From Vicinamibacteria bacterium (GTDB taxonomy: Bacteria; Acidobacteriota; Vicinamibacteria; Fen-336; JAGNNV01), in contig JAENWE010000043.1 of the NCBI GenBank assembly GCA_016650185.1, forward strand, positions 1 to 41,367: 41,367 nucleotides of DNA, read 5' to 3'. Below, one piece after another: positions 12,573 to 39,802 of the stretch. Below the pieces are notes generated by a model that worked only from the letters and a program-made list of their open reading frames with translations, was not told the origin of the DNA and made no database searches. Position 1 is the stretch's first letter. Every line of letters begins with the position of its first letter. The translations under genes and the position numbers were made by a program.

Positions 12573-12873
12573 GAGGGTGGGCGCGTCAGACTCCGGGCAT
12601 CGGGGTCGTCTCCAAGGTGGACACACCGGGGAGACAGGCCCGGTAAATGGCGGAGATAAGGCGATGAGCTGCGTTGCATGGCCGGCGCACCCCCGATCCT
12701 AAGCGGTCTCCGGCCCGATTACAGTCGGCCCTTTCGATTCTCGCAAGCCTCGCGGAGCGCTCTCGCGCGGTCGATGCTCAAGAATGGGGCGTCCTGTTGG
12801 AGATAGATATTTTCAGCGCGTGAATCGGACGACCTGCCATTGTTCTTCGGAACCGCGGTGGCCGACCCCGGGG

Positions 12874-15110: not shown

Positions 15111-15114
15111 GGGA

Positions 15115-16299: not shown

Positions 16300-16300
16300 C

Positions 16301-17293: not shown

Positions 17294-17318
17294 TAAAGAG
17301 GCATCATAGACCCAATGG

Positions 17319-17348
17319 TTGCCACTCGGTTGGAGGCGTGGATACAAT
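17319..17348 (+). promoter_or_regulatory. Candidate sigma70-type promoter (TTGCCA-N18-TACAAT) for the TolC-like gene
   Basis: TTGCCA is at 17319-17324 and TACAAT at 17343-17348. They lie in the 83-bp divergent intergenic region, about 29 nt upstream of the ATG at 17377. This is a pattern match only. Confidence 0.3.
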
Positions 17349-17376
17349 CCTCGCTGTGGGCCAGCCAGAACCAGTC

Positions 17377-21606: not shown

Positions 21607-21616
21607 TCGAGATCTG

Positions 21617-24240: not shown

Positions 24241-24276
24241 CCGGACAAAGGACCATCTGGAGTACGCTCGCACCGA

Positions 24277-25113: not shown

Positions 25114-26039
25114 GCGACCTCGTCCCCCAGGAGCATCGTCCAGGGAAGGGATTCGTTGAACTCGAGTGCGCAATCCGAGAGCGATGAGCGGTTCTTGAGC
25201 AGGTGGGCGCAACGGGACAGGAGCAGGCAGGTGAGGACGGCGGTACGACCTTTTTCGAAGGGGGAAAAGCGCGGGTCGTGGTGGACGCCTCCTCGGGAAC
25301 GGGTCGACGCGTCGGCCATCGGCGAGTTGGCCAGGGAACAGATGCGGCTGCCATAGCGGCGGGTCGCCCACTCCAAGAACTCCGCCTGGTCCGTGGCCAC
25401 GAAGATCTTCGGACGATGCGGCGCATGGTGCTGAAGCAAGCGCTCAATCTGCCGTCCGTATCCCTCAAAAGACGGCCTCTGGGTGGGGAAATGGGTGCTC
25501 TTGTCCGTACCACGGAAGTGGACACCCAGGACGAAGTCCGCGCCCGTCGTGTACTCCCGCAGGTGTTCGTCCACCTGGTCGACCATCCAAGGCTGTACAC
25601 GGATGTGGCGCCTGGTGAGGCGTCGGCACTCGCGAAGGGATTCAGCCGCGCCCAGGGGGTAGGGCTGCCGAACGCTGTTCGTGGGGACGGCGAGAGCCGT
25701 CCACGATTCATTGAAGAAATGCGGACCGTAACAGTGCCATCCGCGGCAATGCACTTCCTCAACCGGGTCGCGGCCTTCTTTTAAGGGCATGAGTTTGCTG
25801 AAGAAATAGGCCCACCAGTTGGGCCCGCGCGCGGCATCCAGGTAGTACGCGTTGTTGAATCGAACGAGCACCTCACTTGCCTCCTGTGCCTCCGCGAACT
25901 TGAGGGCGCCCAGAACCGCATGGAACTCCGAGAACAATCCCTGGGCCTGGGCGAGACGTCCTCCAAACGGGGAATCCACACGGCTATAGACGACCAGCCG
26001 GCGGTCGCGAACGCGTGGAAGCGGCAGGAGGGAATACAA
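25083..26039 (-). CDS. GT23-like (NodZ/FUT8-type) fucosyltransferase-family glycosyltransferase
   Basis: LGVHFRGTDK, IFVATDQAEFLEW and AVLTCLLLSRCAHLLKNRSSLSDCALE parallel the three FUT8/NodZ motifs (GVHVRRTDK, VYLATDDPSLL, DIHFLSQADFLVCTFSSQV). The start is TTG at 26039. The 3' end overlaps the convergent FkbM gene by 31 nt. Confidence 0.68.
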   Translation of the reverse strand: MYSLLPLPRVRDRRLVVYSRVDSPFGGRLAQAQGLFSEFHAVLGALKFAEAQEASEVLVRFNNAYYLDAARGPNWWAYFFSKLMPLKEGRDPVEEVHCRGWHCYGPHFFNESWTALAVPTNSVRQPYPLGAAESLRECRRLTRRHIRVQPWMVDQVDEHLREYTTGADFVLGVHFRGTDKSTHFPTQRPSFEGYGRQIERLLQHHAPHRPKIFVATDQAEFLEWATRRYGSRICSLANSPMADASTRSRGGVHHDPRFSPFEKGRTAVLTCLLLSRCAHLLKNRSSLSDCALEFNESLPWTMLLGDEVAYCDVAGIGR

Positions 26040-26053
26040 AGAGGGTCTCCGAT

Positions 26054-27022
26054 CTACGACTCGTCAGGCCCCCCACGCCGGGCGGGAGGCATCCAGTAGA
26101 TTAGATCCGCGTCGAAATAGGCGAGGCGCCGATACCCGAGCGGATAAAGCAGACGCTCGTAGGGGGAGAGGTCGCCCCGCGCTTCGCTCACGATGTAACG
26201 AGGACGAAACCCGGCGTGGCAAACGGCGGACAGAACCTCGAGATCGAGCCCCTCGATATCCAGCGAGAGGACGCCGAAGGTGCGCGGGAGCGCGGCGCCG
26301 CGGCTGGTCAAGGACTCCTCGATAGAGAGCATCAGCGTTTCCGCGCTCTCCCCTCGTACCGAAACCCCGAACTCGCCCGGCGCCCCAGAGGGCGCCAAAA
26401 GAGACGAACCGGTGTGAGCCCAACCCTTGATATTCAGGGTCTGAGGCCCGTCGGTTCGCCCGGTCACCGCACTGATGCGGATGATCACGCGATCCTCGTG
26501 TCCGAGCCAGCGCTTGTCCCTCCCTGCGTTGTTCCGAAGCTCGGCTTCGAGCGCTGGGTTCGCTTCGACGAGCACCGCCCACCAGCCGAGTTGGGTGAAG
26601 TTGCAGGAATGGCTGCCTTGAAAGCCATCGTTGGCGCCCAGGTCGATGACGATCCTTTCGTCTTCGGCGATGGACGCGTGTTGTCGCATATGCGAGAGGA
26701 GGAACGCGAACTGACCCCGGCTCGAGACATCGAAAACGGCGCGTTGCACGCCGGGGGAGGTCTCGACGAGCAGCAGCCGGCTGACAAGCCCTTCCTCGAC
26801 CGCCCAGGCTCCGAGATGTTTCAATCGACGGTAGACATCGTAGTGCGAGGCGCTCATGGGCGCATCCGACGAATCGCCCAAGGCGCCCCGGAACACCAAT
26901 CCCCATTTCTTCGCCTCTCGTAGATAGGGCCACGCCTTGAAGCAAAACCAGCTCAGCGTGGCGCCGAGCAAGAGGAGGGCGAGGGCAGCCACAAGCACCA
27001 CGGCTTCGGCGAGTGGGGTCAT
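26054..27022 (-). CDS. Membrane-anchored FkbM-like methyltransferase
   Basis: The N-terminal helix is AVVLVAALALLLLGATLSWFCF. The FkbM-like motifs are VIDLGANDGFQGS, VLVEANPALEAELRNN and VLSLDIEGLDLEVL. Confidence 0.72.
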   Translation of the reverse strand: MTPLAEAVVLVAALALLLLGATLSWFCFKAWPYLREAKKWGLVFRGALGDSSDAPMSASHYDVYRRLKHLGAWAVEEGLVSRLLLVETSPGVQRAVFDVSSRGQFAFLLSHMRQHASIAEDERIVIDLGANDGFQGSHSCNFTQLGWWAVLVEANPALEAELRNNAGRDKRWLGHEDRVIIRISAVTGRTDGPQTLNIKGWAHTGSSLLAPSGAPGEFGVSVRGESAETLMLSIEESLTSRGAALPRTFGVLSLDIEGLDLEVLSAVCHAGFRPRYIVSEARGDLSPYERLLYPLGYRRLAYFDADLIYWMPPARRGGPDES

Positions 27023-27074
27023 GGCGCCTCCGGGACCGGGGAAAAAGGGCAGGCGGCCTCATCGCGTCGAAGCA

Positions 27075-28076
27075 TCACCGTGACTGACCGATATGCCCGG
27101 CCTCCCGCAGCCAGCGAACCGTGTCGGCGAGAGTGGAGCGCGCGTCGCGGAAGGAGACACCCAGCTCCCTCTGGGCCTTGTCGCTCGACATATACCAGAA
27201 GAGCGTTCCGTAGGGAACCACCGCGGGGTTGAAAGGAAGGGGAATCCGCAGCAAGGGGCCGACCCGCGCGATGAACCGCAGGAGCGAATTGGGGATTTTC
27301 AGGGTGCGCGGCTTCCGCCCGAGAATCGCGAGCGTTGTCCGGGCCAGATCCTCGACGCTCACATTCTCCCCACCGAGAATGTAACGTTCCCCGCTGCGGC
27401 CCTTGTCCAGTGCGGCCACGGCGCCTTCGGCGACGTCATCCACATGGGCGACGCTCGTTCCGCCCGTGCAGACCACCGCCGGCGCGCTGTTCGCGAAATC
27501 CGCCAGCGTGCCCGCGGTGATCATGCCTGTGTCATTCGGGCCGTACACCTCGGTGGGATTGACCATGACCACGCGCAGACCGTCGGCGGAGGCCCGACGG
27601 CACAGTGCCTCCGCTTCGCGTTTTACCCGCGGATAGAGGTACCGGTCGAGCGGCAGTGTGAACTTGCTCTCTTCGTCGTGGACCACCGGTGTGGCCGATC
27701 CGTTGATCGCGGTGGCGCTGGATACGAACACGACTCGCACTCCTTCGCGGGCCAAAGCCGCCCGCAGGATGTGGCCGGTGCCGGCCACAACCACATCGGG
27801 GAGAACGGGGGAATTGATGTCGGTCCAGGAGGAAGGGCTTGCGAGATGGATGACTGAGTCGCACCCGTTGACCGCACGTTCGACGGCGGCGGAATCGCGC
27901 ACGTCCCCGAGCGCCGTTTCGTAAGGGAGACTCTGGATCCGTTCGGTCCGGCTCTCCGCGCGGAGGAGACAGCGGACATGGCCACCTTCCTCGAGAAGGC
28001 GGCGGACCACCCGCGACCCGATGAACCCGTTGCCGCCGGTGACGAGCGTGCGTCGGTGTTCCGACGCGTTCATCAT
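27075..28076 (-). CDS. Extended-SDR NAD(P)-dependent epimerase/dehydratase-family reductase
   Basis: The Rossmann motif is LVTGGNGFIGSRVV and the catalytic Y-x3-K is in YPRVKREAE. The ATG overlaps the TGA of the upstream alpha-oxoamine synthase (ATGA at 28073-28076). Confidence 0.85.
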   Translation of the reverse strand: MMNASEHRRTLVTGGNGFIGSRVVRRLLEEGGHVRCLLRAESRTERIQSLPYETALGDVRDSAAVERAVNGCDSVIHLASPSSWTDINSPVLPDVVVAGTGHILRAALAREGVRVVFVSSATAINGSATPVVHDEESKFTLPLDRYLYPRVKREAEALCRRASADGLRVVMVNPTEVYGPNDTGMITAGTLADFANSAPAVVCTGGTSVAHVDDVAEGAVAALDKGRSGERYILGGENVSVEDLARTTLAILGRKPRTLKIPNSLLRFIARVGPLLRIPLPFNPAVVPYGTLFWYMSSDKAQRELGVSFRDARSTLADTVRWLREAGHIGQSR

Positions 28077-29575
28077 CGGCAGAGCGCAGACCCGCCGAGG
28101 ACGCGATCCGCGGTCAGCCGGATGGCATGGTCCAGGTGGTCCTCGGTGTGGAGGCTCGACACGAAAAATCGGAGACGCGCGGTGCCTGGCTCCACCGCCG
28201 GGGAAACCAGCGGCTGAACGTTGACGCCCGCGGCAAACAGCTCGTTCGACAAGCGCATGGCGTCTAAGTCGCCGCCCACGATCACCGGGACCACGCCGGA
28301 ATGGGCGGACCGACCGACATCGAGCCCGCTTGCCCGCGCTTTCCGCGCAAGATACTCCGCGTTGCGGCGGAGCGTTCCCACGCGCGCGGGCTCGGCCTGC
28401 AGCATCTGGATCGCTCGCAGGGCCGCCGCGGCGTTTGCGGGAGAGATTCCGGCAGAGAAGATGAAACCCGGGCAGGTGTAGCGTAGGTAACGGATCAGCC
28501 GTCGCGCTCCCGCCACGTAGCCGCCACAGCTCGCGAGGGATTTGGAGAGCGTGCCCATGAGGATGTCGATTTCCGAAGCAGGGATCGAGAAGTGTTCGGC
28601 GATACCGCGCCCCGAGCGGCCCAGGACGCCAATGGAGTGGGCCTCATCGACCATCAGCCAAGCCTTGTGCTCGTGTTTGATGCGAATCAGTTCGTGGAGG
28701 TCGGGTATGTCGCCCTCCGTGCTGTAGACACCCTCGACCAGCACCAGTGCCGAGCGGTGGTTCCGGCGCTCTATCCCGAGGAGAGCGTCAAGAGCTGCGA
28801 AGTCGTTGTGAGGGAAGGACAGACATCGCGCTCCCGACAGGCGCGCGCCGGTGATGGCGCTGTTGTGCATCAAGGAGTCGTAGACGATGACGTCCCGGGG
28901 CGAGCAGAGATGGCTGATAACGGAGACGTTCGTCGCGTGGCCCCCGACGAAAACTAGCGCCTCTTCGGCTCCTACGAATCGCGCGAGAACGCTTTCGAGG
29001 CGGCGGTGGATTTCTCGCTCGCCTGAGGAGAGGCGACTCGCCGAAACCGAGGCTCCATACCGGTCGACGGCTTCGCGCGCCGCTTTTTTGACCTCGGGGT
29101 CATCGGCGAGCCCGAGGTAGTTGTACGAAGCGAAATTGATCAGGCTCCGGCCCCCGGAAACGATGGTTGAGCCAGACGCTCCATCGAACGAGCGGAAGAA
29201 GGGGTCTTCGAGTCCCGCGTCGTCGAGAGCCCGGAAGCGGGCCTCGAACTCGAGCAAACCGGGCAGCGCGTCGTACCCTCCGATGGCCTCGGCGGGTTTG
29301 GTCGATTCGACGGGGGCGGGAGCAGACAAGTGTTCGGCGAGCGCTCGGATCGAAGGCTGCTTCCACAGCAGGTCGGGATCGATACGACGGCCCGTCCAAT
29401 CTTCTGCCTCCGCGAGGACCGAAGCCACGGAAACCGAGTCAAGACCATATCCCGAGATGGGCGCGGTGAGATCGAGCCGATCCCGCCCGATCCCGGCTTC
29501 TCCTAAGAAGAGACTGATGAGCTTCTCCTCAACCTGGTCGCGGCTGAAGAGGCCCGGGGGCTTCGAAGGCATCAT
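28073..29575 (-). CDS. Carrier-protein domain fused to an alpha-oxoamine synthase (serine palmitoyltransferase/AONS family)
   Basis: The N-terminal ~90 aa form a PP-binding domain (ISGYGLDSVSVASVLAEAEDW). The AOS core carries INFASYNYLGL, GGHATNVSVIS, LMVDEAHSIGVLG and the PLP-Lys in MGTLSKSLASCGGY. I trimmed the start to ATG 29575 (MMPSKPPGLF...), and the track ORF extends to 29686. Confidence 0.85.
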   Translation of the reverse strand: MMPSKPPGLFSRDQVEEKLISLFLGEAGIGRDRLDLTAPISGYGLDSVSVASVLAEAEDWTGRRIDPDLLWKQPSIRALAEHLSAPAPVESTKPAEAIGGYDALPGLLEFEARFRALDDAGLEDPFFRSFDGASGSTIVSGGRSLINFASYNYLGLADDPEVKKAAREAVDRYGASVSASRLSSGEREIHRRLESVLARFVGAEEALVFVGGHATNVSVISHLCSPRDVIVYDSLMHNSAITGARLSGARCLSFPHNDFAALDALLGIERRNHRSALVLVEGVYSTEGDIPDLHELIRIKHEHKAWLMVDEAHSIGVLGRSGRGIAEHFSIPASEIDILMGTLSKSLASCGGYVAGARRLIRYLRYTCPGFIFSAGISPANAAAALRAIQMLQAEPARVGTLRRNAEYLARKARASGLDVGRSAHSGVVPVIVGGDLDAMRLSNELFAAGVNVQPLVSPAVEPGTARLRFFVSSLHTEDHLDHAIRLTADRVLGGSALCR

Positions 29576-29833
29576 GATCTTCGCGTTCACCCTCGCGATC
29601 TGCGTGTTCAGCGTCCGTCTTCCGGCCGTGAAGGGCTGGGGGAGGGAATACGAGCCTGACCGTAGAACCTGCGTCTTGCAGGACAACGTGAGCCAGGGGC
29701 GCGATCATGCCAGGTCAGCAACCTATTCAGTTTACACATGGGCTCCCGGTACGCCGGTTCTCCTCGGCCGCGCCGGCCGCTCTCATGGAAGCAGCGCGAA
29801 AAATGACGGGGCCCCACCACAAAACCCGCGCCA

Positions 29834-31609
29834 TCAGGCGCTGAAGATCTGGTTCTCCACGAGTTCGGCGTAGACCGAACCCTGGCGCATCAGCGATCCA
29901 TGCGTTCCCGACTCGACCACCCGGCCGCCATCGAGCACGATCACGCGATCGGCGGAACGGATGGTGGACAGGCGATGGGCGATTACCAGCGTGGTCCGTC
30001 CCTGCATGAGGCGTTCGACCGCTTCATGCACTAGGGATTCGCTCTCGCTGTCGAGGGCGCTCGTCGCCTCGTCGAGGATGAGAATTCGCGGGTCCTTGAG
30101 TACGGTGCGGGCGATGGCGATGCGTTGTCGCTGGCCGCCGGAAAGCTGAACTCCGCGCTCGCCCACCCGGGTCTCGAATCCTTGCGGAAGGCCCGTGATG
30201 AAGTCGTGCGCGTTTGCCGCCCGCGCCGCGTTCACGACCTCCGCCGTCGAGACGTGATCGAGGCCGAAGCGGATGTTCTCGGCGATGGTCAGGGCAAAAA
30301 GTGTCGGCTCCTGCGACACGAAACCGATGTGTCGCCGCAGCCATCGACCGTCGAGGGTGCGTGAATCGGCGCCATCGATCAGGATGCGGCCTGCGAGCGG
30401 GTCATGAAAACGCAGCAGGAGGCCCGCGAGTGTCGACTTCCCCGCCCCGGATGCTCCGACGAGAGCGACCACCTCGCCGGGTCGAACCGCTAGGCTGAGA
30501 TCGTGCAGCACCGGCACTTCGGGCCTCGATGGGTAAGCGAACCCCACACCTTCGAAGACGACCTCGCCGGTCATGGCCTCCGCGCCCTTCCCCTCGCCCA
30601 CGGGAATGCGTGGCTCTCGGCCGAGGACCTCCAATATCCGTTTAAGGGCCCCCGACGCCCGTCGGACCTCTGTGGAACATTCGGCCAGGTCGCGAACCGC
30701 GCCCAACGCCAGCATGCCGGTGAAGGCGAATGCGGCGAGGCCTCCGGTGCTGACGGCTCCCGCCGAAAGCTGAGGCATCCCCACCAGGATGACGACGAGC
30801 ATTTCGGGGCCCACCACGGACACGCCGCGGACCACGCCATAGACAAAGTTGGTGCGTCGCCCGATGGCAAGGTTGCCTAGGGCGGCGGTCCGATAGCGTT
30901 GCGACATGAAGGCCTCCTGGTCGCTCGCGCGGACCGTACGAATGCCGGAGATGGCCTCCGCCGCGATGCTCGCCATGTCCCCCGTGTTGGTCTGGTAGTC
31001 GTGGGCCAGCTCGGCCACGCGCCGTCCCAGGCGATTGACGAAGAGCACGAAGGGCGTCAGAACGCCCACCAGCACCAGCGTCAGGAGCGGAGACATCCAC
31101 AGCAACACGATTGCCCCCCCGCCGACGAGCACCAGGCTTCGCATGGCAGCCACTACTTGGCCCACGAGGACCTCCTCGAGGGCCTGGGCGTCACCCATGA
31201 GACGGCTCGTCAGGTCGCCTGCCCGCTCTTCGTCGAAGAAGCCGACCTCCTGCCGGAGGATCGAGTCGAAAGTAGAGCTGCGCAGCCGCGCGATCAAGCT
31301 TTGGCTGGCCGAGCTGAAGAGCACTCTTTCCCCGAATCGGCTAAGTCCGCCCAGGCAGAGAACGCCGAAAATGAAGAGCGCGAAGTCCACAGAGAGGCGG
31401 CCTTCATCCACAACGCGGCCCACGGCCTGTGGGAAGTACAGCTGCGTGGCTCCGGCCAGGAAACCGGACACGATGCCCGCCGCGATCATCCAGAGATCCG
31501 GGACCACGAGCGCCCATAGTCGTTCCCGCGCCGAGACTCGTGGGGAGCCATGGCCCGTGGGTTCGTTCTTCACAAGGGGCCCCGGCCGGCGTTTCTTCGT
31601 GAGAACCAA
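29834..31609 (-). CDS. ABC exporter, fused permease-ATPase half transporter (MsbA-like lipid flippase type)
   Basis: The protein has a six-helix ABC_membrane region followed by GASGAGKST, LSGGQRQRIAIAR and ILILDEATSALD. The start is ambiguous: TTG at 31609, or GTG at 31573 that overlaps the upstream TGA (GTGA). Confidence 0.85.
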   Translation of the reverse strand: MVLTKKRRPGPLVKNEPTGHGSPRVSARERLWALVVPDLWMIAAGIVSGFLAGATQLYFPQAVGRVVDEGRLSVDFALFIFGVLCLGGLSRFGERVLFSSASQSLIARLRSSTFDSILRQEVGFFDEERAGDLTSRLMGDAQALEEVLVGQVVAAMRSLVLVGGGAIVLLWMSPLLTLVLVGVLTPFVLFVNRLGRRVAELAHDYQTNTGDMASIAAEAISGIRTVRASDQEAFMSQRYRTAALGNLAIGRRTNFVYGVVRGVSVVGPEMLVVILVGMPQLSAGAVSTGGLAAFAFTGMLALGAVRDLAECSTEVRRASGALKRILEVLGREPRIPVGEGKGAEAMTGEVVFEGVGFAYPSRPEVPVLHDLSLAVRPGEVVALVGASGAGKSTLAGLLLRFHDPLAGRILIDGADSRTLDGRWLRRHIGFVSQEPTLFALTIAENIRFGLDHVSTAEVVNAARAANAHDFITGLPQGFETRVGERGVQLSGGQRQRIAIARTVLKDPRILILDEATSALDSESESLVHEAVERLMQGRTTLVIAHRLSTIRSADRVIVLDGGRVVESGTHGSLMRQGSVYAELVENQIFSA

Positions 31610-33138
31610 CGACGATTGTTGTGGTAAGCCGACGTGAACGCCGTGAACCCCTGGTCGTAAACCCGGCGGTGCGCCGGGCGGGGTTCAAAGGTCCGTTCCA
31701 CAGGAGCAAGCGCTTCGAGCGATTCGAAGGTGTCCACCACGCCGAGAGCGTGGAGGGTGAGCAATGCGGCGCCTCGGGCAGCCGCGAACTCGGGCCTCGG
31801 GATCCTCACGAGGGGGCGGTCGAGGACATCTGCGAGAATCTGGCTCAGGACGTCGCTTCTTGCCCCACCGCCAGTCAGCCGGAGACCGCCAGCTTGCGGC
31901 GTGCCGACCAGCGGCTCGACCTTCGAAAGAGCCCACCGCGTGTTGTAGGCGATGCCTTCGAAAACTGCCCGGGCGAGGTGGGACCGCCCGTGATTCAGAT
32001 CGAGATTCAAAAACCCTCCGCGCGCATGCGCGTCGTCTATGGGCGTGCGCTCTCCGGCAAACCAGGGCAGAAAAGTGAGGTGGGCGGAACCCGGCTCACA
32101 GTCGTTGACGAGGCAGGAGAGGGCTTCGTGGCTGAGGGGCACTCCTTGATCCGACAGTACGCGAAGCCGTAGCCACTCGATGAGGTTACCCGCGTTTTGC
32201 TGGGCGGCCACCACGAGATAGCGCGATGCGTCGGCGCTGCACATAGGGCCTACGTACGAAAGCGGATCGGACACCCGTCGAGGGGCGTGCGCCGCGACCC
32301 AGGAGCTCGTTCCGATCGATACGTGCATGGCGGCGCCGCGCACCGCCCCGCAGCCAATGGACATGGCCGCCACATCGCCCGGGCCGGTCATCACCACGGT
32401 CCCCGGATTCAATCCGAGATCTCTCGCGGCCTCCGCGGTGAGTGGGCCCGAAGGATCCGTGGGGGCCAGAAGGTCGGGAAGCAGCGACTCCCGGAGGCCT
32501 ATCATCCCGAGAATCGTTGAGGACCAAGAGCGCCGACCCGGCCGCGTGTCCATCAGCCAAGTGAGGTTGGCGCAATCGTGCGAGGTGACGTACCGGCCCG
32601 TGCTTCTAAAGAGCAAGTAATCCTTCACGTCGAGAAGCTTGGCCGTCTCGCGCCAGATTTCCGGCCTGCTCTGGCGGAGCCAGACGATCTTGGAAACCGG
32701 ATCGGTTCCGGTCAGGGACGGAGCCCCGCCTGTAAGCCAGAGCCAGCGGGCGATGCGGGTGGCTCCGTAGCCAAAAACCCGAATCAGGCCGCCCGTGACT
32801 TCCCGCGCCTGTCGCCCGGCCCGGGCATCCAGCCAGATCATCGAACGCATCAGGGGGCGGCCCTCGGCGTCCACCGGGAGTGTTCCCTGCATCTGACCGG
32901 TGAAGGTAAGGGCGCGCACTTCGTGGGCCTCGACCGACGCGTCCGATAGGACACGAGCGGTGGTCGTCCGGACCGCGTTCCACCAGTCGAGAGGATCCTG
33001 TTCGGCGAAACCTGCCTCGGGGAAATGAGTCGGGTACGAAGCGGACGCGGTCGCGATCAGACTCCCCTGCTCATCCAGGAGCACAGCCTTGTCGCTCGAG
33101 GTGCCCACATCGTGGGCCAAGACCAGTCGCCTCTTCAC
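31570..33138 (-). CDS. FGGY-family carbohydrate/polyol kinase
   Basis: The N-terminus is LVLAHDVGTSSDKAVLLDEQG and the C-terminal motif is LRLTGGGARSDVLSQILADVLDRPL. My preferred start is GTG 33138, which overlaps the cdsA-like TGA (GTGA). The track ORF starts at 33156. Confidence 0.82.
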   Translation of the reverse strand: MKRRLVLAHDVGTSSDKAVLLDEQGSLIATASASYPTHFPEAGFAEQDPLDWWNAVRTTTARVLSDASVEAHEVRALTFTGQMQGTLPVDAEGRPLMRSMIWLDARAGRQAREVTGGLIRVFGYGATRIARWLWLTGGAPSLTGTDPVSKIVWLRQSRPEIWRETAKLLDVKDYLLFRSTGRYVTSHDCANLTWLMDTRPGRRSWSSTILGMIGLRESLLPDLLAPTDPSGPLTAEAARDLGLNPGTVVMTGPGDVAAMSIGCGAVRGAAMHVSIGTSSWVAAHAPRRVSDPLSYVGPMCSADASRYLVVAAQQNAGNLIEWLRLRVLSDQGVPLSHEALSCLVNDCEPGSAHLTFLPWFAGERTPIDDAHARGGFLNLDLNHGRSHLARAVFEGIAYNTRWALSKVEPLVGTPQAGGLRLTGGGARSDVLSQILADVLDRPLVRIPRPEFAAARGAALLTLHALGVVDTFESLEALAPVERTFEPRPAHRRVYDQGFTAFTSAYHNNRRWFSRRNAGRGPL

Positions 33139-33866
33139 TCCGCCCGACATGCCCACAGATAGGCCTGGAAGAGTGGGGCAACAAAGATCAGCGAGTCGTA
33201 GACGTCGAGGACACCGCCGTGGGTGGGGATGACCGCGCCGAAGTCCTTGATCCTCGCGGCGCGTTTGATCGACGAGGCGAACAGGTCGCCGGCCGTGCCC
33301 GCGCCGGCGAGGAAACCGCCGCCGATCAGGACCTGTTCCCGGCTCAGCGAAGGCACCGCGAAATGGAAGAGAGGCGCCATCGCAATGGTTGTCACGAGCC
33401 CACCCACAAGGCCGGCGACGGTCTTATTGGGACTAAGCGCCGGAAAAGGCCGCGCTTTCCCGAAAGTAGCACCGATCAGATAGGCGGACGAGTCGTTGAT
33501 CTCGACCGCAGCGTAGCAGAAGAACACATCCCCGAATCCGGTGGGGGCAGCGCCCAGGGCAAAGAGCGCCCCCAGGAAAAGGCCCGGGTACAAAAGAGTT
33601 AAGCCAGCGAGCCCCATCCTCCCCAAGGCCCGGGCCGCTTCGATCGCGCAGGCGAGGCCAATCGCGGAAACCGCGGCCAGAAACCACCAGGGTCCCAAGT
33701 AGGCGGGGACGAGGATCGCAGCCAGGGTCAGGATCTCGACGACGTAAGTCGTCCAAATGCGCCGCCCCATGAGACGGCCTTTGGCCTGAGCGAGACCGAT
33801 CCACAGAGCAGCCAGCCCGAATATTGTGGCGACCAATTCCACGGCGGTCTGGGCAGGCTCACGCAT
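33135..33866 (-). CDS. CdsA-family cytidylyltransferase (phosphatidate cytidylyltransferase paralog)
   Basis: The protein is multi-pass and carries SPNKTVAGLVGG and the CdsA signature region GDLFASSIKRAARIKDFGAVIPTHGGVLDVYDS. The usual Arg after GG-x-x-D is Val here. I trimmed the start to ATG 33866. Confidence 0.8.
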   Translation of the reverse strand: MREPAQTAVELVATIFGLAALWIGLAQAKGRLMGRRIWTTYVVEILTLAAILVPAYLGPWWFLAAVSAIGLACAIEAARALGRMGLAGLTLLYPGLFLGALFALGAAPTGFGDVFFCYAAVEINDSSAYLIGATFGKARPFPALSPNKTVAGLVGGLVTTIAMAPLFHFAVPSLSREQVLIGGGFLAGAGTAGDLFASSIKRAARIKDFGAVIPTHGGVLDVYDSLIFVAPLFQAYLWACRAE

Positions 33867-34070
33867 GTATGGCCAGGCTAGGATAGGCGGCTCTATGCCA
33901 CCTTGCAATGACCTCCGGCACGTGCCTTCAAGAAACAGGACAACGGGATCATGGAAACGACTCGAGGATGGGAACATCCAGGGCGTCCGTTTCCCACCTC
34001 CGGAGATGCAGCCAGGAGTCGCCCCCGATACCCGGCGCCGGGCTGACCATGTGTTCCGGTATCGCGTCTA

Positions 34071-35009
34071 GTGGAACGTCTGGACGTCGTCTATGCCTGG
34101 GTGGATGGAGCCTGGCCCGGCTACCGGGACGAACTCTCACGCTACGCGGGCCGTCCCGTCGACTTGAACCCCAACCGCCACCGCGACAATCTCGACCTGT
34201 TGAAATACAGTCTTCGCTCCCTGGAGGTCTTCGCCCCCTGGATTGAGAGGATTCACCTGGTAACCGCTCGTCCGCAGTCGCCTTCCTGGCTGAACCCGCA
34301 CGCACCGGGCCTCAAAGTGATTCACCATGACGAGTTGTTCGCGCTCCGACACCTTCCGACCTTCAACTCCTTCGCCATCGAGTCCTATCTGTATCTCCTG
34401 CCCGACCTCTCACCCCGCTTCTTGTACTTCAACGACGATATGGTCCTCGGCCGCACCCTTCACCCTGGAGACGTGATGACCAAAGACGGTCGGGCGCGCA
34501 TCCACCTCGAATGGAATCCTTCGATCGCCCGGCGAAAGGATGAGCATCCCTGGCGCGCCGCCATCGGCTTCGCGAACGAGCTGCTCGATAAAGCCTTCGG
34601 CGCGGCCAATGCGCGGCGTCTGGTGCGCCATGCTCCGGTGTTGATGGAGATCCAACGCTGGCAGGCACTCGCTGATAAGTGGCCCGAGCCCCTGGAAGCC
34701 ACGCGGTCCGGGCGCTTCCGTTCGGGAGACACGTTCGCTCCCGACTTCCTCTATCCGTACTTTTGTCTCGCTACCGGGCACGCAACCGCGGTATCGATCG
34801 TGGACAGTTACCGCCAGGCCGCCTATGTTGGTCTCGATAACCGGGGGTGGCTGGTGAGCCTCCAGCTCGCCGTCGTCGATCGCCTCCGCCCCCTTTTCCT
34901 CACCCTGAACGACAATTTCGACGAAACGGCTGCGGAGGCCGTCGTGGCCTCGGTGCGCCGATTCCTCGAGTCGTGGTTTCCGCGCCCCTCGCGCTTTGAG
35001 AAGCCATGA
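34071..35009 (+). CDS. Stealth-family hexose-1-phosphoryltransferase
   Basis: The Stealth conserved regions are present: CR1 VVYAWVDG, CR2 NRHRDNLDLLKYSLRSLEVFAPWIERIHLVT...PSWL, and CR3 LPTFNSFAIESYLYLLPDLSPRFLYFNDDMVLG. The start is GTG at 34071. Confidence 0.85.
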   Translation: MERLDVVYAWVDGAWPGYRDELSRYAGRPVDLNPNRHRDNLDLLKYSLRSLEVFAPWIERIHLVTARPQSPSWLNPHAPGLKVIHHDELFALRHLPTFNSFAIESYLYLLPDLSPRFLYFNDDMVLGRTLHPGDVMTKDGRARIHLEWNPSIARRKDEHPWRAAIGFANELLDKAFGAANARRLVRHAPVLMEIQRWQALADKWPEPLEATRSGRFRSGDTFAPDFLYPYFCLATGHATAVSIVDSYRQAAYVGLDNRGWLVSLQLAVVDRLRPLFLTLNDNFDETAAEAVVASVRRFLESWFPRPSRFEKP

Positions 35010-36721
35010 GCGGATCCATGACGTTCGTTGACGTGCTGCGCCGTCGCGCCGAAAGCCGGGAGGGTGAGAAAGGCTACACCTTCCTGGTCGATGGCGAGGG
35101 CCTCGAGGAACGACTCAACTACGCCGAACTGGCGGTTCGCGCCCGGCTGATTGGAGGAAGGCTGGCCGCCCGGATCCCGCGGGGCGTCCGGGCTGTGCTT
35201 GTTTTTGACCCCGGGCTCGCATACATCGCGACGCTTTTCGGCTGCTTGCAGGCCGGCATCGTGGCCGTTCCGGCATACCCGCCGAACCCCCTTCGGCCGG
35301 AAGCCGGCCTCGACCAGATCGAACGCGTGACCGCAAGTGCAAAGGCCAGGTTCATCCTGGGCTCCGGCGAACTCCTGGGCCGTCTGCACAATCTGCTCAG
35401 AGGCGCCCCCTGGGTGCAGGGCCTGGGGTGGATCGACGTCAGCGCCGCCGACGCCGATCAGGCGAACTGTCTCCCTGAGGTTTCGGAGGACGACATCGCC
35501 ATCATCCAGTACACCTCCGGTTCCACGTCCGAACCCAAGGGCGTGATGGTGACCCATCGCAACCTGATTCAGAACGCCGAGTTCATTCGTGCAGGCTTCG
35601 CACTCACCGAGAATGCCAGTGGCGTCTCCTGGCTGCCTCCCCATCACGACATGGGTCTGATGGGAGGGATCATCCAGCCTCTGTTCATGGGCATGAACAT
35701 GGTTCTCCTATCGCCCCAGCTTTTCGCGCGGCGTCCGGCCACCTTCCTCGAGGCCATTTCGCGATTTCAGTTGACGGGTGGGGGCGGCCCGAACTTCGCA
35801 TACGACATGCTGACCAGGAGGGTGGGCGAAGCGGCCAAGGCCCAGCTGGACCTCTCGTCCTGGAATCTGGCGTTTTGTGGAGCGGAGCCGGTGCGCGCGG
35901 CGACCCTCGACGCCTTCGCCGATGCCTTCGCGGGATGTGGCTTTCGCCGCGAGGCTTTTCTCCCGTGCTACGGCCTCGCCGAGGCGACTCTTCTGGTCAC
36001 CGCCTCTGAATTCACCAGGGAGCCGCGACGCCTGACTCTCGACGACGGCGCGCTCGAGAAGGGTTTTGTGGTGCCTGCCGACCCTTGCCTGCCGGGAACA
36101 CGCGCGTTCGTCAGTTGCGGCCGTGCGCCAGCCGGCATGCGAGTGACGATTGTCGATCCCGGGACCGGTCAGGTTCAACCGAAAGGCCGAACCGGCGAGA
36201 TCTGGGTCAAGGGCCCCAACGTCGCCGCGGGATACTGGGACGCCCCGCTCGCCACCGCGGCCAGCTTCAATGCACAACTCGACGACGGGCAGTCGGGATT
36301 CCTTCGTACCGGCGACCTCGGTTTCATCGATCAGGGCGAGTTGTTCATCACCGGAAGGTTCAAAGACCTGATCATCATTCGGGGCCGCAATCTGCACCCC
36401 CAGGACATCGAGTCGACCGTCGAAAACGCTCACTCCGCGGTGCGGCCGGGCCGATCAGCCGCGTTCTCCGTGGAGGTCGAGGGCGACGAGCGGCTGGTCG
36501 TGGTCTTCGAAGTCGGCCGCCGGGCCCTCCTCGATCCCGCACCCGTCCGGGAAGCGGTCCGACGGGCGGTCGCCGGAGCGCACAGCATCGTTCCCCACGA
36601 GATCGTCCTTCTAGAGCCCGCAAGGCTCCCCCGCACATCGAGCGGCAAACCGCGAAGGGTCCTCACTCGGCAGCGGTTCCTGGCGGGGCGGCTCGGTCTC
36701 GACGTGGAGACCCCCGAATGA
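35006..36721 (+). CDS. Fatty acyl-AMP ligase (FAAL, FadD32-like adenylating enzyme)
   Basis: The N-terminus is TFVDVLRRRAESREGEKGYTFL...LNYAELAVRA. The adenylation motifs are IIQYTSGSTSEPKGVMVTHRNL, WLPPHHDMGLMGG, TGDLGFI and SSGKPRR. The ATG overlaps the Stealth TGA (ATGA at 35006-35009). Confidence 0.88.
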   Translation: MSGSMTFVDVLRRRAESREGEKGYTFLVDGEGLEERLNYAELAVRARLIGGRLAARIPRGVRAVLVFDPGLAYIATLFGCLQAGIVAVPAYPPNPLRPEAGLDQIERVTASAKARFILGSGELLGRLHNLLRGAPWVQGLGWIDVSAADADQANCLPEVSEDDIAIIQYTSGSTSEPKGVMVTHRNLIQNAEFIRAGFALTENASGVSWLPPHHDMGLMGGIIQPLFMGMNMVLLSPQLFARRPATFLEAISRFQLTGGGGPNFAYDMLTRRVGEAAKAQLDLSSWNLAFCGAEPVRAATLDAFADAFAGCGFRREAFLPCYGLAEATLLVTASEFTREPRRLTLDDGALEKGFVVPADPCLPGTRAFVSCGRAPAGMRVTIVDPGTGQVQPKGRTGEIWVKGPNVAAGYWDAPLATAASFNAQLDDGQSGFLRTGDLGFIDQGELFITGRFKDLIIIRGRNLHPQDIESTVENAHSAVRPGRSAAFSVEVEGDERLVVVFEVGRRALLDPAPVREAVRRAVAGAHSIVPHEIVLLEPARLPRTSSGKPRRVLTRQRFLAGRLGLDVETPE

Positions 36722-37362
36722 TCGACAGTCTCTACCGGTCGAAACAGGATGCGTTCTGGGACCGGTTGGGAGGCGTTCTTGCCCGGCGCGGCGTGTCGCC
36801 GGATGCCGTGACCAAAGGCGCGTTTCTTCTGAGCACGCTCAACTCTTTCGCCTTCCTCGTTCACCGCAACTTCCTCGCCTACGGTCTGCTGCTCGCGATG
36901 ACGGAACTTCTGGACAACTTGGACGGGGCCGTCGCCCGCGTGAGCGGGCGGAAGACGAGGTATGGCGCGTTTCTCGATGCGGCCACGGATCGCTACAAGG
37001 AGTCGCTGAGTCTGTTCGTCGTGGCCTGGGTGACGGGCTACTGGGTCGCGTGTTTCGCGGCGGTGACGGGCTCCCTGCTCACGAGCTACAACCGCGCGCG
37101 CGCCGCCGTCGAAGGCGCACAGGCCGCCGCCACGGGTCTTGATCTCTTTGAGCGCTTCGAACGTGTGGCGACACTCGTGCTGGGTCTCGTTCTTTCTCCG
37201 CTCTTGCCGCCCTCGCTGTTCCTCGGTCGCGACGCCCTCTGGGGCGCGTTGGTGTTGATCGGGATCTTGTCTCACCTAACGTCGGTTCAGCGCGTGTGGC
37301 GTGCCCGCCGGGTCCTGCGTGAACTTGACCGCGGGTCGTCCTCTCCCTTCCCCCGGGCCTGA
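36718..37362 (+). CDS. CDP-alcohol phosphatidyltransferase family protein
   Basis: The motif D-x2-D-G-x2-A-R-x8-G-x3-D-x3-D is read as DNLDGAVARVSGRKTRYGAFLDAATDRYKE. The protein is a multi-pass membrane protein of about 214 aa. The ATG overlaps the FAAL TGA (ATGA at 36718-36721). The track ORF from 36085 is an in-frame artefact over the FAAL 3' end. Confidence 0.85.
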   Translation: MIDSLYRSKQDAFWDRLGGVLARRGVSPDAVTKGAFLLSTLNSFAFLVHRNFLAYGLLLAMTELLDNLDGAVARVSGRKTRYGAFLDAATDRYKESLSLFVVAWVTGYWVACFAAVTGSLLTSYNRARAAVEGAQAAATGLDLFERFERVATLVLGLVLSPLLPPSLFLGRDALWGALVLIGILSHLTSVQRVWRARRVLRELDRGSSSPFPRA

Positions 37363-38523
37363 ATGGTTTCGCCCGAACTCTTCGATCTGAAATCGCCGGC
37401 GCGACGAAGGGTGGCGCTTCTGGTGTGTCGTCTCTATGCGGTGTTGCCCTGCGTCATCACGCCCCTCGTGACGGGCTTCTTGTGCGCGATCGAGAACGGC
37501 GTCTTCGCGGCCGCGGGCCTGGTCATCGTTTCCTCCGCTTTGATGGCCGTCCGGTTCCCTGACTTCCGAGAGAAGTCAGGCGCCATGGCGCTGAACGCCC
37601 TTTTCTACTTCACTCTGATCGCCCTGCCTCCGCTCGTTTTGCCTTTCGCCGGTCCTGCGGGCTTCCTTGCCGGAGCGATCTTCGGATCGGTGCTGTCACT
37701 GGCCGTGATCGGCTGGATCCCTCGCGTGCCCCGCGTGGGGTCGATGCTTCAGCCGGAGCTTTTTCCCGATGTGCTCACAGGACTGATCCTGAGCCTGCTC
37801 TTTTACATACCCGTTTTCCTTCTCAAGCGCCCGCGACTCGCCCCGCTCGAACCGGCCCCGCCTTTCGACGTGGCGGTGATCCTCTGCGCCTACCAGGAGG
37901 AGGCCACGATTGACGAATCACTCGCGAGTATCCGGGTTGCGGTCGACTGCCTGCGGGGATCGCCGCTCGTGAAACGAGTCCGCGTCATCCTCGTGGACTC
38001 GAGTCCCGTCGAAGCGACGCGCCGGCGCGTCGCTTCCCAGGTCGACCGCGTGATCGACGGAGACTCGGGGAAGCTGAGTGCCCGCCATCAGGCGATGCGC
38101 CTCGAAAATGCGGACATTTTCGTGGCCGCGGACGCCGATCGCCGCTATGACCCCGAATGGCTGGTGACCCTGCTGGCGCCCTTCGCCGACCCGAGGGTGG
38201 TGGCGACCATGGGAGAGACGCGAAACGCGGGTGCGGGCATGAGTGCTAGCGCCTTGTGTCGCGCCACGCTGAAGCTCCCGTACAACGGCGGCAACTCCGC
38301 CTTCTTTCGTTCCGCCTACTTCGCGGCGCCCTTCGCCACCACCATCGATCAGGGTCGGCACAAGGAACTCTGGGTCGAGGAGGAGTTTCTGTTCGGCTTG
38401 ACTCTGCAGGCGCAGGGACGCATAGCCCATGTGATGGAATGCCGCTCCTACGAACTGCGCCCCTACCCGCTTTTCGCCCAGCTCTCGCGTCATCTCTTCG
38501 GCGTGCGGCTTCGGACTTTCTGA
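37363..38523 (+). CDS. Membrane-anchored GT2-family glycosyltransferase
   Basis: Four or five N-terminal hydrophobic helices are followed by a GT-A domain with FDVAVILCAYQEEATIDESL and VAADADRRYDPEWL (DxD). The ATG directly follows the upstream TGA (TGAATG). Confidence 0.75.
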   Translation: MVSPELFDLKSPARRRVALLVCRLYAVLPCVITPLVTGFLCAIENGVFAAAGLVIVSSALMAVRFPDFREKSGAMALNALFYFTLIALPPLVLPFAGPAGFLAGAIFGSVLSLAVIGWIPRVPRVGSMLQPELFPDVLTGLILSLLFYIPVFLLKRPRLAPLEPAPPFDVAVILCAYQEEATIDESLASIRVAVDCLRGSPLVKRVRVILVDSSPVEATRRRVASQVDRVIDGDSGKLSARHQAMRLENADIFVAADADRRYDPEWLVTLLAPFADPRVVATMGETRNAGAGMSASALCRATLKLPYNGGNSAFFRSAYFAAPFATTIDQGRHKELWVEEEFLFGLTLQAQGRIAHVMECRSYELRPYPLFAQLSRHLFGVRLRTF

Positions 38524-38824: not shown

Positions 38825-39802
38825 ATGAAATCTGAAAGAATTCTCGTCGCCGGTGCGGGTGGGTTTATCGGAGGGCACCTCGTTGCCGACCTTCTCAGTC
38901 AGGGATACAAGGACATCCGCGCCGTGGATCGCAAGCCGATGCGTGATTGGTACCAAAAGTTCCCGCAGGTGGAGAGTTCGCGGCTCGATCTCCAGGAACA
39001 AGATGCCTGCGAGCAGGCGGTCAAAGGCGCGAAGGTCGTCTATAACCTCGCCGCCGACATGGGCGGGATGGGCTTCATCGAGCTGAACAAGGGGCTGTGC
39101 ATGCTGAGCGTGCTGATCAACACCCACCTTCTCCTCTCCGCGAAGAAGAACAACGTGCGGCGCTTTTTCTTCGCCTCCTCCGCCTGCGTTTACAACGTGG
39201 ACAAACAACGCGATCCGAACGTAACCGCGCTCAAGGAGGCGGACGCCTACCCGGCGATGCCCGAAGACGGCTACGGTTGGGAGAAACTTTTCAGCGAGCG
39301 GATGTGTCGGCATTTCCGCGAGGACTTTGGCATCCAGACGCGCGTCGCCCGTTACCACAACGTCTATGGCCCCAACGGGACCTATGAAGGAGGGCGTGAA
39401 AAAGCCCCTGCCGCGATCTGCCGCAAGGTCATCCAGGCGAAGCTTTCACAGAAGCACTCGATCGAAATCTGGGGCGACGGCAAGCAGACCCGGAGCTTCA
39501 TGTACATCGACGACTGCCTCAAAGGCACGCACATGCTCATGCGCAGCGGTGTGATCGAACCGCTCAACATCGGCAGCAGCGAGCTTGTCTCGATCAACCA
39601 GCTCGTGGACATAGTCGAGGACATTGCCGGCATCAAGCTGAAGCGGAAGTACAACCTTAGCGCCCCGAAAGGCGTGAATGGGCGTAACAGCGACAACACT
39701 CTCATCAAAGCCCGCCTCGGCTGGGAGCCAGACACCCCTCTGCGCGACGGGATGGAGAAGACCTACCGCTGGATTTACGATCAGATGACGCGCAAGAAGT
39801 AG
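38825..39802 (+). CDS. GDP-mannose 3,5-epimerase (GME-type extended SDR)
   Basis: From memory this is close to plant and bacterial GME throughout: GAGGFIGGHL, NLAADMGGMGFI, RFFFASSACVY, YGWEKL, RYHNVYGPNGTYEGGREKAPAAICRKV, WGDGKQTRSFMYIDDC and GVNGRNSDNTLIKARLGWEP. Confidence 0.85.
   Translation: MKSERILVAGAGGFIGGHLVADLLSQGYKDIRAVDRKPMRDWYQKFPQVESSRLDLQEQDACEQAVKGAKVVYNLAADMGGMGFIELNKGLCMLSVLINTHLLLSAKKNNVRRFFFASSACVYNVDKQRDPNVTALKEADAYPAMPEDGYGWEKLFSERMCRHFREDFGIQTRVARYHNVYGPNGTYEGGREKAPAAICRKVIQAKLSQKHSIEIWGDGKQTRSFMYIDDCLKGTHMLMRSGVIEPLNIGSSELVSINQLVDIVEDIAGIKLKRKYNLSAPKGVNGRNSDNTLIKARLGWEPDTPLRDGMEKTYRWIYDQMTRKK

Follow-up and report, generated by a model that had tools for sequence, protein, structure and literature searches.

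The window analysed here is a stretch of 41,367 nucleotides that makes up an entire contig (C43) of the fragmented metagenome-assembled genome (MAG; 3.85 Mb in 535 contigs, 79% complete) of an uncultured, soil-type Acidobacterium. Among named organisms, Vicinamibacteria (Acidobacteriota) have the proteins closest to those encoded here. Four plus-strand genes between positions 34071 and 38523 encode a Stealth hexose-1-phosphate transferase, a fatty acyl-AMP ligase (FAAL), a class I CDP-alcohol phosphotransferase and a membrane-anchored glycosyltransferase of family GT2, the four identities proposed in an initial annotation of this DNA and borne out by our searches. The gene identities and the intact catalytic motifs, like the conserved co-location and the presence/absence patterns reported below, were observed directly. 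It is very probable that the four genes contribute to a single lipid-linked product, not to a capsule plus an unrelated lipid, and the functional unit also takes in a divergently transcribed operon for a CdsA paralog, an FGGY-family kinase and an MsbA-like transporter, which the initial annotation had overlooked.

The first gene (34071..35009, plus strand) encodes a minimal Stealth protein of 312 amino acids that matches the Pfam Stealth CR2, CR3 and CR4 models above cut-off; the CR1 motif DVVYAWVDG is visible by eye at residues 5-13, the Pfam CR1 model itself not being reported. GTG 34071 is the sole start that retains this motif, and upstream of it the frame holds only 8 more codons, none of them a start. 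Over its whole length the protein can be aligned with the CpsY catalytic core of Mycobacterium tuberculosis (8J2N; residues 4-311 against 3-310) and with GNPTAB. Its NDD, FR and LND motifs, the counterparts of CpsY N322/D324, R419 and CR4, do not vary in the homolog alignment. It is presumably a UDP-hexose-dependent hexose-1-phosphate transferase. The equivalent of CpsY E305, a sugar contact, is present in the window protein and variable within its clade. Catalytic core and motifs are common to the window protein, CpsY, GNPTAB and the meningococcal capsule polymerases; unlike these, the window Stealth consists of the minimal core only, and it is partnered in the genome by genes for lipid synthesis and lipid flipping, not by glucan or capsule genes. 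In a quick tree the window Stealth fell, with uncertain placement, outside the main Acidobacteriota clade, and we claim no horizontal donor for it; for most other Acidobacteriota the neighbours of the Stealth homolog are LicD and MsbA genes instead.

The second gene (35006..36721, plus strand) encodes a protein of 571 amino acids with an AMP-binding domain and a DIP2-like C-terminal domain (Pfam). Among stand-alone NCBIfam models, FAAL subfamilies rank first for it, at 394 bits (cut-off 600) and 388 bits (cut-off 775), and its top 15 matches in the Protein Data Bank (PDB) are all FAALs or FAAL domains, led by 7R7E-G (1e-145) and followed by 3KXW, FadD23/32/28 and 3PBK. By sequence it is closer to proven FAALs than to acyl-CoA ligases. 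The fourth gene (37363..38523, plus strand) encodes a GT2 enzyme of 386 amino acids, in which about five hydrophobic segments (residues 16-156) precede a GT-A domain (Glycos_transf_2, residues 172-292) with a DAD motif. A ceramide glucosyltransferase (GT21) identity was considered and is not claimed: the protein-atlas neighbours are GT2/GT21-like, which is a lead only, and the Pfam GT21 model matched at E=0.2.

The third gene (36718..37362, plus strand) encodes a CDP-alcohol phosphotransferase (Pfam CDP-OH_P_transf) of the inositol-phosphate type with 214 amino acids, a size typical of six transmembrane (TM) helices. It begins at ATG 36718, and TTG 36085 further upstream in the open frame is not its true start, because homologs and the archaetidylinositol-phosphate synthase (AIPS) model align from residue 1-6 of the protein that begins at this ATG. 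The signature D..DG..AR...G...D...D is intact and is kept in 29 orthologs, with one Ala-to-Ser change (L073). The PDB matches are all inositol-phosphate enzymes, namely AF2299, the phosphatidylinositol-phosphate synthase (PIPS) MtPIPS (6H53) and DIPPS (4MND). In MtPIPS, inositol phosphate is bound by S132, K135, R155 and R195 (PMC4634129). These residues align to S123, R126, R149 and R192 of the window transferase and are kept in the 29 orthologs, the K135 position being K or R, with one His. According to the PIPS structure paper, the six-TM size belongs to enzymes with a soluble acceptor and extra helices to those with a lipid acceptor (PMC4634129); from its short form and conserved inositol-phosphate residues, the window enzyme should therefore use a CDP-lipid donor and inositol-1-phosphate. 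With MtPIPS, RsPIPS (5D91) and AIPS it shares its six-TM size, its complete signature and the residues for the phosphate and ring of inositol-1-phosphate. It departs from them in scoring below both equivalog cut-offs, in being partnered with its own CdsA paralog and at the equivalent of MtPIPS P153, which stacks on a diacylglycerol chain and is replaced by Phe in the window enzyme and by Leu, Met, Phe or Gln in orthologs. Window-type transferases score 127-138 bits and are AIPS/PIPS-like, as against 36-41 bits for the second transferase found in proteobacterial loci; the BT_1523-type model gives the window enzyme 62 bits (cut-off 350).

Direct reading of the junctions agreed with the initial annotation: the Stealth stop and FAAL start overlap in ATGA (35006-35009), the FAAL stop and transferase start overlap in a second ATGA (36718-36721), and the transferase stop abuts the GT2 start in TGAATG (37360-37365). 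The stoichiometric co-expression that the annotation drew from these junctions is not readable from overlaps that occur all over the island. Start-over-stop overlaps also join LicD with the nucleotidyltransferase (NTP transferase) gene, GT32 with the next gene, the oxoamine synthase with its reductase, the CdsA paralog with FGGY, and FGGY with MsbA; as they are the rule here, three consecutive ones are not unusual. Scans of the operon for consensus internal promoters (1 against 0.9 in shuffled controls) and terminators (7 against 5.8) gave no excess, and such scans neither prove nor disprove a single transcript for the four genes. The intergenic region between the two divergent operons (33978..34070 by open reading frame coordinates; a CdsA-paralog start at 33866 would widen it to as much as some 200 bp) gave no Rfam match and no promoter consensus, only inverted repeats that are short and imperfect, and a regulatory RNA or operator in this region was rejected.

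When other genomes were checked for the four-gene order, it was found in one sister species and nowhere else. Contig L116, from a metagenome, is 98.7% identical in DNA to a contig of the same-genus genome G061, so the two represent one further species, not many. L116 keeps the four genes in order with junctions ATGTTGA, GTGA and ATGA and 70-74% protein identity, and there too FGGY and the CdsA paralog are divergent from Stealth, FAAL, transferase and GT2 (protein identity 61-74%). The conservation of order and overlapping junctions in the sister species indicates that the tight packing is not accidental.

The divergent operon begins with the CdsA paralog (33135..33977, minus strand; CTP_transf_1, Pfam 149 bits), which is distinct from a housekeeping CdsA encoded separately on contig C170 and reaches 78 bits against the NCBIfam CdsA equivalog (cut-off 385). 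Compared with TmCdsA (4Q2E/4Q2G), the paralog keeps the Asp dyad and the KR, KD and HGG motifs, and the Arg of LDRID is Val. This loss of the Arg of DRxD with retention of the catalytic Asp dyad was seen in 22 of 22 proteins compared, the window paralog and 21 cluster-linked ones. The start of the next gene, a xylulokinase-like FGGY-family kinase (31570..33156, minus strand; FGGY_N and FGGY_C), overlaps the stop of the CdsA paralog. The kinase scores 313 bits against the XylB model, under the cut-off of 380; its best PDB matches are xylulokinases and gluconate kinase, and its DxGTS, GxGD and GGxA motifs are kept in orthologs. An MsbA-like ABC lipid flippase/exporter follows (29834..31609, minus strand; ABC_membrane and ABC_tran), with 503 and 447 bits against MsbA-related models, below their cut-offs. 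Next come an Spt/BioF-like alpha-oxoamine synthase fused to a PP-binding carrier domain (28073..29686, minus strand; PP-binding and Aminotran_1_2) and an extended short-chain dehydrogenase/reductase (SDR) whose start overlaps the synthase stop (27075..28076, minus strand; Pfam Epimerase/3Beta_HSD, HpnA 226 bits). The SDR stays beside the synthase in the same-genus genomes G076, G061 and G071.

The wider conservation of this gene set was examined in 80 genomic loci that contain relatives of the Stealth gene and come from Acidobacteriota and from Alpha-, Beta-, Gamma- and Deltaproteobacteria. Neighbours were counted within 10 kb, as matches covering at least half their length unless a looser count is given. 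The most frequent were a GT4 glycosyltransferase (55/80), the PIPS-like transferase (52/80), the FGGY kinase (51/80) and NTP transferases (44/80), followed by MIPS, the inositol-phosphate synthase (39/80), an adh_short SDR (38/80), the MsbA-like transporter (35/80), LptF/LptG paralogs (32/80) and DUF4833 (29/80). The CdsA paralog lay near Stealth in 26 loci, or about 45 at looser coverage, and the oxoamine synthase in 16, with about 20 more cut at the locus edge. Most of this recurrent set is carried by the window on its two divergent operons. FAAL was orthologous in one of the 80 loci, the G061 contig, and GT2 in none, its only ortholog being that of L116 (71% identity); the two genes are lineage-specific additions.

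The usual proteobacterial layout places FGGY, then MIPS or a Frag1/PGAP2-like gene, then transferase and MsbA, all divergent from Stealth; FGGY adjoins the PIPS-like transferase in this divergent position in about 50 of the 80 loci, and in L021 MIPS lies between the two. The oxoamine synthase and SDR genes stand directly beside the CdsA paralog in L021, L024 and G084. We also ran the reverse search, taking the CdsA paralog of Terasakiella as query against 251 sampled alphaproteobacterial genomes (two of them, G120 and G320, are unpublished, and no specific claim depends on these two). It matched its own genome and G084 only, and the G084 locus contains oxoamine synthase, SDR, CdsA paralog, MIPS, GT4, Stealth, FGGY, transferase and MsbA. 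A CTP_transf_1 search of 251 alphaproteobacterial genomes, again with G120 and G320 among them, gave mostly housekeeping CdsA copies among the matches listed.

Several of these loci hold variants of their own. In Terasakiella pusilla (L024, 13386-19694) a 2102-residue, fully reducing type I polyketide synthase (PKS; KS-AT-DH-ER-KR-ACP) lies directly upstream of the oxoamine synthase and replaces FAAL and the fused carrier domain. Paired LptF/LptG paralogs lie inside the cluster in L081 (13546-15788) and 31 other alphaproteobacterial loci, which suggests that the product of such loci may use an Lpt-type route to the outer membrane. A Frag1/PGAP2-family membrane protein is encoded between FGGY and transferase in L024 (7619-8383) and L056 (6931-7761), and a DUF4833 gene is overlap-coupled between MIPS and oxoamine synthase in L081 (18624-19244; 29 loci). 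The Frag1/PGAP2-like or the DUF4833 protein could be the missing acyltransferase or a remodelling step.

Among the 18 genomes of the genus, FAAL is present in four (G000, which is the window genome, G061, G071 and G076), exactly those that have the carrier-fused oxoamine synthase, whereas Stealth, FGGY and the CdsA paralog travel together in two (G000 and G061). Orthologs of the transferase were found in G000, G076 and the G061 population, and a Stealth ortholog in 2 of 78 genomes of the order. These presence/absence patterns show the island to be accessory and modular. In G076, FAAL and the pair of carrier-fused oxoamine synthase and SDR are divergent neighbours, and the transferase lies on a separate contig. 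There (L111, G076:C20, 6146-10694) the transferase gene is followed in turn by a small open reading frame resembling GT2 residues 8-78, a fusion of phosphoenolpyruvate (PEP) mutase and NTP transferase, a thiamine pyrophosphate (TPP) enzyme of phosphonopyruvate-decarboxylase-like type and a second NTP transferase. By its gene families, this locus is a predicted phosphonate module of aminoethylphosphonate type, where the window has LicD and a fusion of NTP transferase and pyridoxal phosphate (PLP) enzyme. G061 carries two extra genes of 456 and 158 amino acids, both without Pfam match, between FGGY and MsbA (L010, 1728-3587), which have no counterpart in the window; 10 Stealth loci contain the larger of the two. 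About 13 genomes of the genus encode a second oxoamine synthase (41% identity) some 4.5 kb from another CDP-alcohol transferase (about 33% identity), as at G073:C22:283842-288997. This may be a core amino-lipid locus separate from the accessory island; it was not found in the window MAG, which is incomplete.

These data bear on the proposal of the initial annotation that the operon makes a single lipid-linked product and not a capsule plus an unrelated lipid. That there is one product is very probable, because in four proteobacterial classes relatives of Stealth lie next to the PIPS-like transferase, MIPS, the CdsA paralog, an oxoamine synthase of Spt-like type and exporters of MsbA/LptFG type, because the reciprocal search from the CdsA paralog returned to the same cluster, and because FAAL and the carrier-fused oxoamine synthase are found in exactly the same genomes of the genus. 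A fixed unit of four genes is not supported: the operon combines two or more sub-modules as a mosaic, in which a backbone gene (FAAL) is interleaved with head-group genes.

As to the nature of the product, we put at about an even chance the reading that a single accessory island of some 30 kb, of which the four genes form the plus-strand half, makes and exports one anionic inositol-phospho (sphingo)lipid phosphoglycosylated by Stealth. FAAL, by analogy with its family, would adenylate a long-chain fatty acid and load it onto the carrier domain fused to the oxoamine synthase (28073-29686), and the synthase with the adjoining SDR would form a sphingoid-type amino-alcohol backbone. The lipid would then be phosphorylated and made into a CDP-lipid by the dedicated CdsA paralog (33135-33977), whose changed substrate motif makes it the obvious candidate supplier of CDP-lipid. 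The PIPS/AIPS-like transferase (36718-37362) would move the lipid-phosphate onto L-myo-inositol-1-phosphate, with MIPS encoded elsewhere in the genome. The membrane GT2 and other transferases of the island would glycosylate the head group, and Stealth would add hexose-1-phosphate to it through a phosphodiester bond. An MsbA-like transporter would flip the product, and a MacB/TolC-type pump in the window, or LptFG paralogs in Proteobacteria, may export it. In this scheme we infer all substrates and the order of the steps, and likewise that the lipid is sphingoid, that a CDP-lipid is an intermediate, and what FGGY does. The genome encodes LpxC and a TolC-type channel and thus belongs to a diderm organism making lipopolysaccharide (LPS); a role of the island lipid as a necessary LPS replacement was rejected on account of LpxC.

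The FGGY kinase may either phosphorylate a lipid for the CdsA paralog or act on a sugar or polyol that becomes a head-group substituent. It is a candidate lipid kinase because a lipid phosphate is required and FGGY is the sole kinase of the conserved set, and because in the window its gene overlaps the end of the CdsA-paralog gene, and elsewhere it adjoins the transferase gene. We estimate roughly one chance in three that it acts on a lipid; a sugar/polyol-kinase role fits better with its xylulokinase-like motifs and its co-variation with Stealth. The window contains no DAGK_cat gene; the rest of the genome has one. A lipid kinase of DAG-kinase type is missing altogether from Shimia biformata, a carrier of the conserved module.

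Several observations weigh against the reading of the island as the source of an inositol-phospho (sphingo)lipid. The product and the enzyme activities are predicted from genes alone. The best NCBIfam model of the transferase, AIPS, gives 128 bits over the whole model (cut-off 180), and the PIP synthase model 82 bits (cut-off 170); the oxoamine synthase likewise falls below the cut-offs, with 354 bits against BioF and 329 against CFB-type Spt (cut-off 640). No N-acyltransferase (ceramide synthase, bCerS) was recognised in the island, where a GNAT protein (11376-12626) is a candidate only, and no PIP-type phosphatase was evident there. MIPS is a core gene, found in 17 of the 18 genus genomes. 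The window genome has a single copy, which lies among housekeeping genes and is split by an assembly gap (G000:C47:3-335 and G000:C396:16863-17446), with metH on one side and NUDIX, rluD-like, lgt and class I tRNA synthetase genes on the other; MIPS as an island-specific gene was rejected on its distribution and flanks. To our knowledge no FGGY kinase acts on a lipid, and our literature search returned nothing relevant on this point. Finally, G076 has a 71%-identical transferase, yet Stealth, FGGY and the CdsA paralog are undetectable in that genome, which is 82% complete; its layout weakens the link from CdsA paralog to transferase and hints at a donor of CDP/CMP-head-group type.

The closest experimentally studied logic is that of ceramide phosphoglycerate (CPG/CPG2) synthesis in Caulobacter crescentus, with genes cpgA-cpgD next to spt (PMC11324152, PMC12275187, PMC10331486). 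Phosphosphingolipid synthesis there depends on adjacent genes for a kinase, a CdsA-like protein and a CDP-alcohol transferase, and a ceramide activated with an NDP has been proposed; the lipid produced is anionic, belongs to the outer membrane and bears two phosphates (PMC11324152). By gene family the modules are alike, since in Caulobacter Spt, a carrier protein, an acyl-carrier loading enzyme and a reductase stand beside the kinase, the CdsA-like CC_1161 and the CDP-alcohol transferase CC_1159. They differ in the kinase, which is of diacylglycerol-kinase type in Caulobacter (CpgB; PMC10331486), whereas the only clustered kinase of the island is the FGGY sugar-kinase homolog. They also differ in the head group, which is phosphoglycerate in Caulobacter; the island transferase is of the inositol-phosphate type, MIPS is co-localised in relatives, and Stealth and several glycosyltransferases are added.

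The second system for comparison is that of Bacteroides thetaiotaomicron (BT_1522-BT_1526) and the Bacteroides vulgatus/Prevotella cluster, where MIPS, a CDP-alcohol transferase and sphingolipid synthesis yield inositol-phospho-(dihydro)ceramide (PMC9246714). MIPS and a CDP-alcohol transferase are common to these clusters and the gene set of the island, which would also make a sphingolipid. Unlike the Bacteroides clusters, the island has no recognisable PIP phosphatase and no recognisable enzyme for head-group exchange from phosphatidylinositol (PI) to ceramide, and a CdsA paralog, FGGY kinase and Stealth are present instead of the remaining Bacteroides genes. Some Proteobacteria make an inositol-phospho-ceramide-like lipid in spite of lacking both Bacteroides clusters, so that another route must exist (PMC9246714). 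In our literature search we found no mention of "CDP-ceramide" and nothing tying Stealth or FGGY to sphingolipid or inositol-lipid synthesis. No prior description of the recurrent multi-phylum gene set was found, and its product has never been observed.

A more specific form of the inositol-phospho (sphingo)lipid reading would make the module an undescribed bacterial route to inositol-phospho-sphingolipids, common to Acidobacteriota and four classes of Proteobacteria. The Arg-less CdsA paralog would make a CDP-activated ceramide or long-chain base, FGGY would be the lipid kinase, and Stealth would phosphoglycosylate the head group to give an outer-membrane glycolipid like the glycosylinositol phosphoceramides (GIPCs) of plants and fungi or the lipophosphoglycan of Leishmania. 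Taken with all its parts, this proposal is doubtful.

A Kennedy-type scheme would reverse the roles of donor and acceptor. The transferase would take a small head group activated with CDP or CMP (as CDP-inositol, CDP-ethanolamine or CMP-aminoethylphosphonate) by a nucleotidyltransferase of the island and pass it to a lipid hydroxyl, and the CdsA paralog would act otherwise, for instance as a dolichol-kinase-like, CTP-dependent lipid kinase. CTP_transf_1 also contains CTP-dependent polyprenol kinases, which counts for such a role. The scheme would accommodate G076, where the transferase adjoins a PEP-mutase/NTP-transferase fusion, a TPP enzyme and an NTP transferase with the CdsA paralog undetectable, and the 44 of 80 Stealth loci with NTP transferases nearby; a CDP-inositol route has been proposed for Bacteroides (PMC9246714). 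It fits poorly with the transferase itself, a short, six-TM, soluble-acceptor form without the extra helices of lipid-acceptor enzymes; the orthologs compared retain the Arg pair and the Ser/Lys for binding the phosphate group of inositol-1-phosphate. Moreover, the LicD genes beside the nucleotidyltransferases are more obvious users of CDP/CMP-activated groups, and the CdsA paralog retains the CdsA-type HGG..D..D motif. We consider this scheme unlikely.

The split distribution within the genus, with FAAL, oxoamine synthase and SDR in four genomes and Stealth, FGGY and CdsA paralog in two, would also be expected if the island made two products. One would be a diacylglycerol-based, phosphatidylinositol-type glycolipid like the mycobacterial phosphatidylinositol mannosides (PIMs), made by the transferase, glycosyltransferases and Stealth, and the other a separate amino-lipid made by FAAL, oxoamine synthase and SDR. 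About half of the Stealth loci are without an oxoamine synthase within 10 kb, although many of its matches are merely cut off at a locus edge, and the GT4 near Stealth is reminiscent of PimA-type enzymes. CDP-diacylglycerol, however, is already provided by the housekeeping CdsA, and the substrate motif of the dedicated paralog is altered. In addition, FAAL is set between Stealth and transferase with overlapping junctions in two species, and it is the CdsA paralog that the oxoamine synthase and SDR directly adjoin in L021, L024 and G084. Two separate products thus appear quite unlikely.

Characterised bacterial Stealth proteins include the Neisseria serogroup A and X capsule polymerases, so Stealth might act as a polymerase that makes a lipid-anchored poly(hexose-phosphate) capsule or a lipophosphoglycan-like polymer and not a small glycolipid. 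Large exporters do lie nearby (the LptFG paralogs and the MacB/TolC pump). The window Stealth is nevertheless a catalytic core of 312 amino acids only, no capsule exporter was seen among the annotated recurrent neighbour families (Kps/Wza genes were not specifically searched), and MsbA-type flippases handle lipid-linked molecules of limited size. A polymer is highly improbable on these grounds. That the island is a secondary-metabolite cluster, in which FAAL, the carrier-fused oxoamine synthase and SDR make a secreted lipo-amino-alcohol glycoside exported by pumps beside unrelated phospholipid-type genes, is barely credible: the pairing of FAAL (or PKS, in Terasakiella) with an oxoamine synthase is common natural-product starter logic and the island is accessory and patchy (2/78 genomes of the order for Stealth), but of all partners the CdsA paralog, PIPS-like transferase and MIPS show the strongest conservation across phyla, and their genes stand interleaved among the rest.

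The head-group pathways of bacterial sphingolipids and inositol lipids are known from two model systems only, Caulobacter and Bacteroides, with key steps unassigned in both. The island and its proteobacterial counterparts represent a third gene set of wide distribution, in which a dedicated CdsA paralog is combined with a PIPS-like transferase and MIPS, and an FGGY kinase and a Stealth phosphosugar transferase are unexpected members. Several cultured marine Alphaproteobacteria bear the module (Stappia stellulata DSM 5886, Terasakiella pusilla DSM 6293, Shimia biformata JCM 18818 and Pseudooceanicola nanhaiensis DSM 18065). If the inositol-phospho (sphingo)lipid reading is true, it would add a CDP-lipid route to inositol sphingolipids and a lipid-head-group role for Stealth proteins, and would offer a candidate explanation for inositol sphingolipids in Proteobacteria without the Bacteroides genes. 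Were FGGY the lipid kinase, it would be the first such case for the FGGY sugar-kinase family.

Adjoining the oxoamine synthase operon, the region 19115..27062 holds probable head-group decoration genes (Pfam): LicD, the NTP-transferase/PLP-enzyme fusion, a GT32-type DXD transferase, a GINT1_N-like gene, FkbM methyltransferase(s) and a GT23-like gene. Orthologs of these genes adjoin the pair of oxoamine synthase and SDR in G061 and G071. Two genes of the window (23269-24240 and 21506-23383) match families of eukaryotic inositol-phosphoceramide glycosylation, namely GINT1_N (plant GIPC glucosamine transferase) and the DXD family Gly_transf_sug; the latter family presumably includes the yeast mannosylinositol phosphoceramide (MIPC) synthases. 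GINT1_N-like genes were present in 7 of the 80 Stealth loci. On the other side, 300 bp downstream of the four genes, lies a gene for an NDP-sugar epimerase/reductase, a GDP-fucose-synthase-like SDR (38825..39802, plus strand; Pfam Epimerase; 127 bits against GDP-L-fucose synthase, cut-off 500), whose membership in the operon is uncertain.

A MacB-type tripartite pump is encoded at 12874..18942 (Pfam) by genes for an ABC ATPase, two FtsX/MacB permeases, an HlyD adaptor and a divergent TolC-like channel. The pump is a possible exporter of the product, and FtsX-type permeases were also found in a few Stealth loci. Its ABC ATPase (12874-14136) bears a C-terminal cyclic-nucleotide-binding (cNMP) domain, an unusual regulatory fusion for a MacB-type pump. 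Beyond the pump lie the GNAT gene mentioned above (11376-12626) and a gene for a FabF-like ketosynthase.

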